This document shows positions 25,600 to 59,955 of a stretch of DNA of 64,000 nucleotides, one piece after another; the stretch's first letter is position 1, and the number at the start of each line of letters is the position of its first letter. This DNA is from Octopus vulgaris. Taxonomy: Eukaryota. Under the pieces are notes generated by a model. The model was not told the origin of the DNA. It made no database searches and saw only the letters and a list, made by a program, of their open reading frames with translations. The DNA is taken from the NCBI GenBank assembly GCA_951406725.2, contig OX597843.1:18352001-18416000 (forward strand), given 5' to 3'. The position numbers were made by a program, and so were the translations under genes.

Positions 25600-25790
25600 A
25601 TGTTTCACCACATAGTATCATATAGACGGGCTCTTGTGTTGATACTGTGTACGATATTGTTTTTGGAGGCTCAAGCTGATTCAGATATATGCAAGATATG
25701 TACTTGCAATTCACTTACAACAAATATAAATTGTGAAAATCGCAATCTAGCATCAATTCCACAACCAATTCCGACGAATGCTGAATATTT
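25600..25790 (+). CDS. First coding exon: signal peptide + LRRNT cap
   Basis: Acceptor ttttacAG at 25579. Translation MFHHIVSYRRALVLILCTILFLEAQA-DSDICKICTCNSLTTNINCENRNLASIPQPIPTNAEY (CxxCxC...C, LxxIP). Donor GTAAGT at 25791, phase 2. Confidence 0.92.
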
Positions 25791-58700: not shown

Positions 58701-59955
58701 AAAGAAAGTCTTCATGGGGAAGACTCTTTTAGTGAAAATCCCGTTAAAAAGAATCAACCAAGAAAAAAGCAATGTGGCTTTTAGCGACTTAAAATTGGTA
58801 AGTAACAACTGAATCCACGTCGAAGTGTTCTAATGCTTCTGATATTTGTTTGCCAATGATTTCCAATAAAGTTTGATGAGCTATCCTTGTTCTTCATTTT
58901 CTTCTGAATTGTTCAAATAGTAAAGTCAATTTATAGGTACCCAGTATATATCTTCTACCAAAAGGTCAGCATTGTTTTATGTACTTTGAATAGGATTCTG
59001 AAAGTTATGCACTGGTCTGAAGATGGTCAATGTTATTGCAATAATTAATATTTTATTGTTTTGAAGACCTCTTTTTATCATTACACTGCTACTGGAGTAT
59101 ATACTTTTACTATTCCTTGTTTCAGTTAACAGATTACAGCCATTCTGGGGCAGTACCTTTAAGCATTTCTGCGAACAAATCATCCTTAGTACTGAATTTT
59201 TAAAATCTGGTACTTAATCAACCGGTTACCTTTTGCAGAACCACTAAGTTACGGGGGACGTAAACAAACCAATATTGGTTATCAAGCATTGGTGGGGATA
59301 AACACAAAGACAAGAACACGCATATATATATATATATATATATATATATATATATATATATATGTATACATATATATATATGTATACATATATATACGAA
59401 GGGAATCAACACAGTCTCCTGCAGCAAACTTACTCACAACGCTTTGTTGACCCAAGGTTATAGTAAATGTTATTTGTCCAAGGTGCCACACAGTTGGACT
59501 AAAGAGTCCATGGATGTGAGAAGTAATTTTCTTGCCACAGAACCATGCCTATATGGAGAATGATATTTCTACCATAGATGAGAATGTTAACTAAAACCCA
59601 TTTTGTGCACATAAGAAAGTCTCCTTGTTATTTTGTATTTTCTCCTCTTCCATCTTTTGCTGTTTTGTTATCAGGTTTTCTCTTAGGACAATTAAGTTAG
59701 ATTGAAGGAACCTATTCTTGTTCAAACAACACTTCCCGGATAACTATAAAGAGAATTGTAGTGTGTAATATCAGCATTTACCCTGTTAGTGTTGACTAAA
59801 ACGCAGTTTAGTACTGAACAGGAGTAAACAGATTTATTTACTTTTACTTATTTTAAAGTGTGTAATATTTGTCTCTTTTTCAGATATTTGCAAGACAACC
59901 CAATAGAACATTATGAAGATGGCGCTTTCTTATTCCTTCCCAGCATAGTTGAAAT
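25600..59955 (+). CDS. Multi-exon secreted/membrane LRR protein (signal peptide + LRRNT + at least 22 LRRs; 3' part outside window; possibly an LGR-type LRR-GPCR ectodomain)
   Basis: Manual splice assembly: exon 25600-25790 plus 22 x 72-nt exons gives 1775 nt of open frame with no stop. Every repeat fits LxLxxNxIxxIxxxxFxxLxxLxx. All introns are GTAAG...AG and phase 2. Confidence 0.9.
26247..26455 (+). mobile_element. tRNA-derived SINE (family 2), intronic
   Basis: gcgagctatcagaatcgtt...aattctgccgaggttgactttgcttttcat. Confidence 0.6.
27176..27247 (+). CDS. LRR exon 1 (family A)
   Basis: 72 nt, tatAG/GTAAG; (L)NLENNHISTINEGAFTGLSNLKK. Confidence 0.9.
27864..27935 (+). CDS. LRR exon 2 (family B)
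   Basis: 72 nt, ttcAG/GTAAG; (I)SLTNNKISRVEKGMFQGLRRLQT. Confidence 0.9.
28726..28797 (+). CDS. LRR exon 3 (family A)
   Basis: 72 nt, aatAG/GTAAG; (L)ILWNNNISTIEEGVFTGLTNLKK. Confidence 0.9.
30377..30448 (+). CDS. LRR exon 4 (family D)
   Basis: 72 nt, tatAG/GTAAG; (L)DLDGNKISTMKQGIFNGLSNLAA. Confidence 0.88.
32328..32399 (+). CDS. LRR exon 5 (family E)
   Basis: 72 nt, tatAG/GTAAG; (L)YLAHNNISTIKEGTFTGLSNLKS. Confidence 0.88.
33029..33100 (+). CDS. LRR exon 6 (family B)
   Basis: 72 nt, ttcAG/GTAAG; (L)YLHNNKISRIEKGMFQDLHSLQT. Confidence 0.88.
34358..34429 (+). CDS. LRR exon 7 (family C)
   Basis: 72 nt, aacAG/GTAAG; (L)NLGANNISTIKHGIFMGFKNLKT. Confidence 0.88.
35109..35180 (+). CDS. LRR exon 8 (family C)
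   Basis: 72 nt, aatAG/GTAAG; (L)YLGANNISTIKHGIFMGLKNLKS. Confidence 0.88.
35796..35867 (+). CDS. LRR exon 9 (family E)
   Basis: 72 nt, tatAG/GTAAG; (L)DLQSNNIATIKEGTFTKLSNLTT. Confidence 0.88.
36369..36440 (+). CDS. LRR exon 10 (family B)
   Basis: 72 nt, ttcAG/GTAAG; (L)YLQNNKISRIEKVMFQDLHSLQY. Confidence 0.88.
36528..36649. repeat. 61-bp direct tandem duplication in the intron after LRR exon 10
   Basis: attacttgaagtcataatcac...gtgtctgaac occurs twice; single copy in other family B cassettes. Confidence 0.9.
37938..38135 (-). mobile_element. R4/Dong-like LINE 3' tip, intronic
   Basis: Reverse complement matches 16430-16615. Confidence 0.8.
39084..39155 (+). CDS. LRR exon 11 (family C)
   Basis: 72 nt, aacAG/GTAAG; (L)YLGANNISTIKHGIFMGLKNLKT. 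Confidence 0.88.
39748..39819 (+). CDS. LRR exon 12 (family C)
   Basis: 72 nt, aacAG/GTAAG; (L)NLGANSISTIKHGIFMGLKNLKT. Confidence 0.88.
40965..41036 (+). CDS. LRR exon 13 (family B)
   Basis: 72 nt, ttcAG/GTAAG; (L)YLQDNKISRIEEVVFQDLRSLQD. Confidence 0.88.
42230..42301 (+). CDS. LRR exon 14 (family C)
   Basis: 72 nt, aacAG/GTAAG; (L)YLGANNISTIKHGIFMGLKNLKT, same as exon 11. Confidence 0.88.
44052..44123 (+). CDS. LRR exon 15 (family D)
   Basis: 72 nt, tatAG/GTAAG; (L)DLNGNNISTMKQGIFNGLSNLTT. Confidence 0.88.
44170..44716 (+). mobile_element. Internally deleted LTR element after LRR exon 15
   Basis: TGTTGTGAG...CCGTAACA with ATAT TSD (44166-69 / 44717-20); LTR 3' terminus is present twice. 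Confidence 0.88.
45975..46590. mobile_element. Family 1 SINE (minus, 45975-46367) with fold-back partial copy (plus, 46367-46590)
   Basis: 46114-46280 and 46404-46590 are near-perfect reverse complements. Confidence 0.85.
46850..46921 (+). CDS. LRR exon 16 (family E)
   Basis: 72 nt, tatAG/GTAAG; (L)DLGHNNIATIKEGTFKKLSNLTT. Confidence 0.88.
47709..47780 (+). CDS. LRR exon 17 (family B)
   Basis: 72 nt, ttcAG/GTAAG; (L)YLQENKISSIEEEMFQDLHSLQY. Confidence 0.88.
49242..49313 (+). CDS. LRR exon 18 (family D)
   Basis: 72 nt, tatAG/GTAAG; (L)NLDGNKISTMKQGIFNGLSKLTT. Confidence 0.88.
49360..51405 (+). mobile_element. LTR retrotransposon remnant (5' LTR 49360-50245, PBS, partial internal region, 3' LTR tip) after LRR exon 18
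   Basis: Same termini and ATAT TSD as 44170. PBS TGGTGTCAGAAGTGGGATT at 50248-50266 is complementary to the 3' end of tRNA-Leu(CAA). A 4-bp TSD suggests Gypsy. Confidence 0.88.
52754..52825 (+). CDS. LRR exon 19 (family E)
   Basis: 72 nt, tatAG/GTAAG; (I)DLQSNNIATIKEGTFTGISILTT. Confidence 0.86.
53627..53698 (+). CDS. LRR exon 20 (family B)
   Basis: 72 nt, ttcAG/GTAAG; (L)YLQENKISRIEEGTFQDLHSLQY. Confidence 0.88.
55332..55403 (+). CDS. LRR exon 21 (family D)
   Basis: 72 nt, tatAG/GTAAG; (L)DLDGNKISTMKQGIFNGLSNLTT. Confidence 0.88.
57690..58483 (+). mobile_element. Penelope-like element RT fragment (degraded)
   Basis: YPSIDID; LYMQVQGAAICVGVSGDIAGLFL; YSRYVDGI; SIHQSIKVT; LPVL. These resemble the PLE RT motifs YxQxxGxxMG, RYVDD, IKFT and LPFLD. 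Confidence 0.7.
59205..59552 (-). mobile_element. tRNA-derived SINE (family 1, old copy)
   Basis: ctaagttacggggg acgtaaac...ccaaggtgccacacag, similar to 5228-5640. Confidence 0.65.
59884..59955 (+). CDS. LRR exon 22 (single-copy, divergent)
   Basis: 72 nt, tttttcAG/GTAAGC; (I)YLQDNPIEHYEDGAFLFLPSIVE. Flanking introns are unrelated to the cassette families. Confidence 0.88.

Follow-up and report, generated by a model that had tools for sequence, protein, structure and literature searches.

The 64,000-bp stretch of Octopus vulgaris DNA analyzed here, named the window in what follows (contig OX597843.1, positions 18,352,001 to 18,416,000; G000:C30:18352001-18416000 of a 2.8-Gb genome), includes most of a gene that ends about 20 kb past it. 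The modules of the encoded protein are, in order, a signal peptide, LRRNT, up to 22 leucine-rich repeats (LRRs), LRRCT, a Ly6/uPAR-like module, a SEA-like module, HRM, and a partial second SEA-like module. Across the exon encoding the signal peptide (cap exon), it has 100% identity with two O. vulgaris proteins, CAI9744517.1 and CAI9744518.1. The LRRs are encoded by 21 duplicated cassettes, named c1 to c21, and a terminal exon. A first-pass annotation of the window had proposed a constant cap, variable cassettes and a constant end, and this layout is supported by our results. The features are as follows, in window coordinates unless indicated; the cassettes were located by profile scan.

698..840, + strand, 5′ untranslated exon; its donor follows 840 and its start is an approximation; loose contig ends in three of four runs match position 809
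25580..25790, + strand, exon for signal peptide, LRRNT and first strand (cap exon); start codon ATG at 25600, phase 2 at its 3′ end
26740..57643, + strand, cassette array; its introns carry (TTC)n tracts on the sense strand
27176..27247, + strand, c1, type A; c1-like sequence follows the cap exon in contigs of two of four runs
27864..27935, + strand, c2, type B
28726..28797, + strand, c3, type A
30377..30448, + strand, c4, sibling of c15, c18 and c21
32328..32399, + strand, c5
33029..33100, + strand, c6, type B
34358..34429, + strand, c7, sibling of c8, c11, c12 and c14
35109..35180, + strand, c8
35796..35867, + strand, c9, sibling of c19; in the two public models the next cassette is c17 or c21
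36369..36440, + strand, c10, type B
39084..39155, + strand, c11, identical to c14
39748..39819, + strand, c12
40965..41036, + strand, c13, type B
42230..42301, + strand, c14
44052..44123, + strand, c15
46850..46921, + strand, c16
47709..47780, + strand, c17, type B
49242..49313, + strand, c18
52754..52825, + strand, c19
53627..53698, + strand, c20, type B
55332..55403, + strand, c21
59884..59955, + strand, terminal LRR exon (profile scan and motif rule)
G000:C30:18417566-18436493, 12 further exons past the window (LRRCT, Ly6/uPAR-like, SEA-like, HRM, second partial SEA-like, and last exon with the stop)

The cap exon is not the first exon of the gene; it is preceded by the untranslated exon ending at 840, and there is an in-frame stop before the ATG.

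A profile seeded from 19 motif hits recovered all 21 cassettes, each consisting of an open frame of 72 nucleotides bordered by AG and GT, and all on the + strand. A motif rule that also covers the terminal LRR exon gave 22 hits on the + strand, none on the − strand, and none in each of 50 local shuffles. These scans bear out the 21 intact phase-2 cassettes plus terminal exon described earlier. Also as described, the joins are free of stops: the 484 possible combinations generate a split codon for Leu (418), Ile (42) or Met (24). The 22 LRR exons and the 12 downstream exons form a single open frame of 1023 amino acids with canonical splice sites. While all 22 exons are intact, they are not all different, as c11 and c14 have the same sequence and the 21 cassettes include 20 distinct ones. 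Sibling groups can be defined (c4, c15, c18 and c21; c7, c8, c11, c12 and c14; c9 and c19, with 4 bases different; and the six type-B copies), two-cassette blocks have been duplicated as units, and the array is partly redundant, with five near-identical copies. A related insertion found after c15 and after c18 (44200-45200 and 49350-51900) is a mark of block duplication. The two exons that bracket the array, previously described as unique, are unique within the window but not in the genome, where each has at least 40 matches (40 of 43 and 40 of 47 candidates were scored). An assembly artefact, an objection raised together with the original description, was rejected because identity in the 40 longest alignments of the array with itself is 67-88%, N is absent from the window, and the design recurs in paralogs; the divergence of the copies excludes an assembly error.

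Variation among cassettes was analyzed at the binding-face codons x3, x5, x7 and x8 of LxxLxLxxNxL, in a main set from 12 close paralogs that comprises 65 type-A cassettes. For positions 1 and 2 of these codons the diversity was 0.61, with all eight sites above 0.5. The comparison values in the same set were 0.056-0.059 for flanking introns (446 sites), 0.19 for four-fold sites (9 sites), 0.07 for other amino-acid-changing sites, and 0.005 for core sites. One of the 12 core sites was segregating versus 57-65% of the intron sites (P=1.7e-4), and each binding-face codon encodes 10-12 different residues. These codons diverge almost without relation to the divergence of the introns (rho 0.07), and in 49 cassette pairs with less than 1% intron divergence 48% of the bases at x3, x5, x7 and x8 still differ. 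At x5, positions 1 and 2 vary freely, but 64 of the 65 copies have T as the synonymous third base. This argues for selection, with diversification of amino acids and not of bases, and such an invariant base inside a variable codon disfavours a local mutator. The window array shows a similar but weaker trend, and its type-B copies have a proportion of nonsynonymous differences (pN) of 0.34 and of synonymous differences (pS) of 0.02 at x5, x7 and x8. Diversifying selection on the binding face is, in our judgment, highly likely, and the hypervariability proposed for the array stands, confined to these codons. In the AlphaFold model of P0015, one of the proteins of the window gene (mean predicted local distance difference test score 64.7, 79-97 per block over the LRRs), each strand is predicted to be centred on x3, the split codon and x5. 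In LRRs generally, x7 and x8 border the same face. Residues 42, 44, 46, 47 and 51 of the LRRNT (window 25600-25790) and x7 and x8 of the terminal LRR exon are also variable between paralogs.

The gene is transcribed, and it is spliced at the cap exon. Lack of expression had been foreseen as an objection to the array; spliced contigs cover the cap exon in all four runs, from four studies, and stop at its splice sites. Past this exon, contigs enter the untranslated exon in three of the four runs and c1-like sequence in two, in which it differs from the reference at x7. The comparison covered positions 25060-26730 only, and the run records carry no RNA or tissue label. Public models of the window gene are two, one with c1-9 and c21 and the other with c1-9, c17, c18, c19 and c21, and neither has all cassettes. 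One of them wrongly borrows a coding exon from 21025-21222. At one O. sinensis paralog locus there are 13 models in steps of 24 amino acids, and at another at least 7. Single LRR exons are skipped in models of all three Octopus species, and in those of O. sinensis and O. bimaculoides the skipped exons also include divergent, non-duplicated ones. The exon skipping suggested as a possibility in the first-pass annotation is present in public gene models, although deletion alleles or cross-mapped reads could mimic it, and on the basis of these models we consider it probably real. Since the splice junctions split the concave β-strand mid-way, skipping would raise the number of distinct strand signatures of the window gene from 21 to 102.

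Alternatively, the diversity could reside in the germline only, with every allele splicing all of its cassettes and the model isoforms representing deletion or duplication alleles of other animals or cross-mapped reads. The isoforms of the O. vulgaris annotation were obtained from public Iso-Seq and RNA-seq via PASA, and the reference from spermatophore long reads (PMC10700109; this and the other articles cited here by PMC number were available in part, and statements taken from them refer to the available parts). With a spermatophore-read reference the array is germline, and the RNA may come from other animals. The joins c9-c17 and c9-c21 of the window models follow sibling blocks, cassette number is free to differ between paralogs, and the departure of c1-like sequence at x7 in other samples also fits this explanation. 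It is nevertheless unlikely, as the 13 nested O. sinensis models and the skipping of divergent single-copy LRR exons are hard to derive from alleles alone.

In arthropod Dscam1, tandem exon duplication also feeds splice diversity, in that case of Ig domains and by mutually exclusive choice, whereas the octopus gene has LRRs and variable-number skipping. A Dscam1-type mutually exclusive choice was rejected because the models vary in exon number and docking matches are not above chance; the best antisense matches in a search for docking/selector complementarity were of 10-19 nucleotides, with E values of 0.09 or worse.

The introns of all 15 arrays analyzed include (TTC)n tracts, with 11-50 hits per kb in the sense strand, at most 0.1 in the antisense strand, and 0-0.7 outside the arrays. 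A tract is found within 700 bases upstream of 98 of 100 cassettes of the close subfamily. UCUU-rich RNA could recruit PTB-type repressors, favouring skipping, and the DNA of the tracts could promote recombination; the tracts may also have been merely inherited with the duplicated unit. A somatic process in immune cells by which cassettes are rearranged or converted, in the style of the lamprey variable lymphocyte receptors (VLRs) and aided by (TTC)n, could have templates in the near-identical flanks and repeat tracts of the 15 arrays. We regard it as highly improbable: the reference gene is complete, no non-spliceable or inverted donor pool was seen in the arrays, and synonymous sites beside the variable ones are unmutated.

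The agnathan VLRs resemble the octopus protein in having LRRNT, 24-amino-acid LRR modules, LRRCT, variable residues in the concave sheet, and membrane and secreted forms (PMC3900441, PMC13428168), and VLR variability maps onto the concave face (PMC3900441). They differ in that they are somatically assembled from incomplete germline genes via deaminase-driven conversion (PMC3900441, PMC13428168), whereas the octopus gene is complete, has one exon for each module, and has a tail derived from an adhesion G-protein-coupled receptor (GPCR). An incomplete germline gene with separate donors was not found in this case, since the 1023-amino-acid frame is complete and all cassettes have splice sites. 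The lamprey parallel drawn earlier is consequently valid for the product and not for the mechanism, all cassettes being spliceable exons in one intact gene. The ROCO arrays of Ectocarpus share with the octopus arrays one LRR per 72-nucleotide exon, exons that are rapidly gained and lost, diversifying selection, and gene birth and death (PMC3341825). Those arrays encode brown-algal ROCO GTPases and include inverted intronic spare exons (PMC3341825), while the octopus genes are extracellular in product, GPCR-derived, and have no inverted cassettes; the best reverse-strand profile scores were negative in 15 of 15 arrays. Crab VLR2 also produces LRR isoforms by alternative splicing, and its membrane isoforms and those without a transmembrane segment bind bacteria differently (PMC10045472). 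Human NLRP3 has frame-preserving LRR exons that are skipped in splicing (PMC6642158), and the window cassettes are frame-preserving one-repeat exons of the NLRP3 and crab VLR2 type. Both are single genes with few isoforms, in contrast to about 60 octopus loci with recently duplicated cassettes diversified at the binding face.

The last of the 12 exons past the window is homologous to the last exon of the neighbouring receptor, and the next gene downstream has the same ectodomain followed by exons for GAIN, GPS and the seven-transmembrane region (7TM). In the window gene no GAIN, GPS or 7TM exon was found by tblastn with two full receptors, either from HRM up to the stop or in the DNA that precedes the next paralog. 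Its proteins (P0015 and P0016) have no Pfam GPS or GAIN, and the signal peptide is the only hydrophobic segment, with no other hydrophobic anchor. These absences point to a product that very probably lacks a transmembrane segment (TM-less) and is secreted. The term receptor used at first does not fit this gene, in contrast to its adhesion GPCR paralogs, and the search suggested then for a 7TM, TM-TIR or GPI C-terminus led, in its 7TM part, to exons without 7TM up to the stop. The TM-less protein keeps the receptor C-terminal ETNF (L011:441-493), which we take to resemble a PDZ-binding motif and which would be idle in a secreted protein. Past the stop there is an orphan Ly6-like exon with one cysteine changed (L011:5727-5909), probably a relic of another copy.

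The Ly6-like module has no Pfam match and resembles Lypd1 weakly by both Foldseek (E 4.7e-3, TM score 0.68 of target) and phmmer (E 0.087). The element order of the SEA-like module in the AlphaFold model would fit a ferredoxin-like β-α-β-β-α-β fold. No SEA entry was found among the database and structure matches listed, and the label is our assumption from the predicted order of elements. HRM was found in Pfam with E 7e-4, below the cut-off, and the ESM Atlas gave no usable match. Identity as TLR, LGR/GRL101 or Slit was rejected because Pfam scans showed no TIR, no rhodopsin-type 7TM with LDLa, and no EGF or LamG; the names ‘slit-like’ and ‘toll-like receptor 5’ of homologues in databases are not backed by matching domains in these scans.

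The window gene is homologous over its ectodomain to the octopus adhesion GPCRs listed as group 3 by Ritschard 2019; our homologues P0073 and P0077 have entries A0A0L8FLR8 and A0A0L8GYR2 in their 90% clusters, and A0A0L8GYU7 is P0008. Judged by homology, it is a derivative of this octopus-expanded family without GAIN, GPS or 7TM. Tandem clustering and branch-level positive selection were reported for the same group (PMC6408891). The available part of that article deals with 21-22 sequences, 5 of 22 with LRRs, and includes no site-level selection, cassette arrays, skipping or TM-less members (PMC6408891). Without 7TM the window gene could not enter a set based on 7TM. Pfam GPS and 7tm_2 were above cut-off in six of six paralog proteins. 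The Ly6-like exon has 66 matches in the genome, none with a stop and 46 of them on C29-C31; some are partial or duplicated inside one gene, and therefore the family has about 60 loci. A profile search with this exon retrieved 24 proteins, and all named ones are from Octopus; one squid member is listed in group 3 (PMC6408891). Among the best 18 of 41 matches to the HRM exon, 15 loci have the last exon 6-19 kb after the HRM exon and no 7TM exon between, two have 7TM, and one is unresolved (the 7TM check used the best 19 of 40 matches, the remainder being outside these intervals). The TM-less layout was found in the DNA of eight of eight genes read from HRM to the last exon; for a ninth gene the reading covered 9 kb beyond HRM. 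The closest GAIN-bearing paralogs (P0005, P0027, P0033, P0085; L107-L108) have no HRM exons, whereas the TM-less ones keep HRM and have no GAIN-7TM; these are two complementary deletions in one subfamily. In a GAIN-bearing gene about 0.47 Mb away, cassettes have 4 and 6 mismatches with c21 and c10, respectively.

The second SEA-like modules of TM-less proteins from O. vulgaris and O. sinensis form one clade (100/94, bootstrap unsettled; 2 of 32 rows, which had no anchor, were left out of the first tree), and an O. bimaculoides TM-less model has its own SEA-like module, duplicated separately. Three O. sinensis models (P0017, P0058, P0034) have two or three tandem Ly6-like modules, and the public model P0018, in which family LRR exons are fused to an ankyrin/MIB2-like gene, is probably an annotation error. 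In O. bimaculoides P0073 a Death domain follows the 7TM (residues 1203-1277, Pfam E 3.3e-6), as also found in such a member before (PMC6408891).

The variation in copy number that had been suggested is observed between genes, with 2-21 intact cassettes per gene and 116 in total in 15 genes (the window gene, its neighbour, and 13 of the 14 other loci with a cap exon at least 90% identical, one having no matching terminal exon listed). The 13 paralogs include 90 full-length cassettes, of which 79 are intact, 8 frameshifted, 2 without a splice dinucleotide, and 1 with an in-frame deletion, and two further fragments. Three distant members have at least 9, 5 and 24 cassettes; the last one (L095-L102) combines an alternating two-type block and a near-identical run at the 3′ end.

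The TM-less genes could also be truncated, decaying duplicates of receptors, with a cassette pattern inherited or maintained by gene conversion from functional genes. Tail exons with pN about equal to pS, the partial second SEA-like module, and frameshifts in the constant exons of two paralogs and in the 8 cassettes are in agreement with decay. We consider it improbable, because the window gene is transcribed and has 21 of 21 cassettes intact in its 1023-amino-acid frame, most of the 65 core-conserved cassettes are from TM-less genes, and the TM-less layout is common to two species. Many of the frameshifts are, moreover, homopolymer-length changes, a known type of nanopore error.

As for the ligand, among seven O. 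bimaculoides relatives looked up, the member with the Death domain has 0.71 of its expression in skin, three have their peak in axial nerve cord, with the others broadly expressed. In O. bimaculoides group 3 is highest in axial nerve cord, suckers and skin, and in C. minor it peaks in gills and skin (PMC6408891). An ‘adhesion GPCR G6’ was found in O. vulgaris skin mucus (PMC11431876), a name common to many family members but not tied to this family, and a haemocyte transcriptome article includes 48 LRR transcripts with no detail in its available part (PMC4199593). The closest solved folds include the neuronal LRR proteins NGL, LINGO and LRRTM; VIA-align comparisons covered the LRR part only. 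A non-self or immune ligand has about the same chance as neural, chemosensory and other uses together. The same anatomy could serve self ligands, as a wiring or cell-recognition code of the arm nerve cord and suckers like Dscam1 or the clustered protocadherins, with TM-less proteins as soluble modulators. The O. bimaculoides expression and the neuronal folds speak for this alternative. The codon-precise diversification and fast cassette turnover in very young paralogs suggest an evolving external partner instead, the peak in C. minor is in gills and skin, docking/selector complementarity was not found, and fold similarity is uninformative on function; we see the self-ligand code as having a rather small chance.

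The explanation that we favour, at roughly even confidence, is a germline-diversified, splice-modulated family of LRR recognition proteins with membrane and secreted forms, which is not a VLR system of the lamprey type. The window copy would belong to a subfamily that lost GAIN-GPS-7TM, hence its secreted product. Cassettes would be gained, lost and homogenised in the germline by the tandem duplication seen in the array and probably by exchange, while selection would keep the LRR core and diversify the exposed x3, x5, x7 and x8, in agreement with the pattern observed. As the junctions lie mid-strand, skipping of the kind present in the gene models would alter the length of the solenoid and create new strand combinations. 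Membrane and secreted members, which share cassette types, would probably have one class of ligand in common, and non-self molecules at the surfaces of skin, suckers or gills would be the most likely class.

Several observations weigh against this explanation. The contigs cover the cap exon only and skipping is seen in gene models, which rest on public RNA mapped to one reference and which deletion alleles or cross-mapping could also yield. The peak of three of seven relatives in the axial nerve cord (0.37-0.52 of expression) fits a neural role. Introns are possibly homogenised or constrained and may understate neutral divergence; with respect to four-fold sites the excess is about 3-fold and not 10-fold, and since cassette pairs are non-independent the P values overstate certainty. 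Eleven of the 90 full-length cassettes of the 13 paralogs are non-canonical. Comparison of the tail exons of the window gene with those of three TM-less paralogs gave pN of 0.061-0.065 and pS of 0.065-0.070 (31-37 nonsynonymous and 9-11 synonymous changes), so that purifying selection was not detected there in any of the three comparisons. Finally, LRR arrays with one repeat per exon are widespread among eukaryotes (PMC6642158, PMC3341825).

Retroelement fragments, which we take to be of reverse-transcriptase type, are found in the first intron of the gene (17034-21677, − strand) and before (57900-58480, + strand) and after (61915-63564, − strand) the terminal LRR exon.

A literature search retrieved no description of cassette arrays, binding-face selection or TM-less members for this family, with most subscription papers and bioRxiv supplements outside its reach. 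The parts are familiar and the combination of an adhesion-GPCR scaffold with cassette arrays and soluble sister genes is unreported. A bolder version of the favoured explanation, which we hold as tentative and as clearly less probable, is a VLR-like octopus system evolved from an adhesion GPCR. Dozens of germline-diversified genes, stochastic skipping per gene or cell, and paired 7TM and secreted forms would act against microbes or parasites at body surfaces, as a convergent pair of the receptor/antibody type, with no somatic recombination involved. In the available part of a 2026 review on immune diversification, molluscs are represented by FREPs and cephalopods by no diversified receptor (PMC13428168). 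The family described here is a concrete cephalopod candidate with a clear selection signature. It also redraws the published expansion as about 60 loci, at least 15 of them without the membrane part and out of sight for surveys of GPCRs. An adhesion GPCR with a diversified LRR ectodomain, accompanied by soluble sister proteins, would, if true, be unusual for microbial or neural ligands alike, and the family may supply octopuses with a varied set of recognition molecules.

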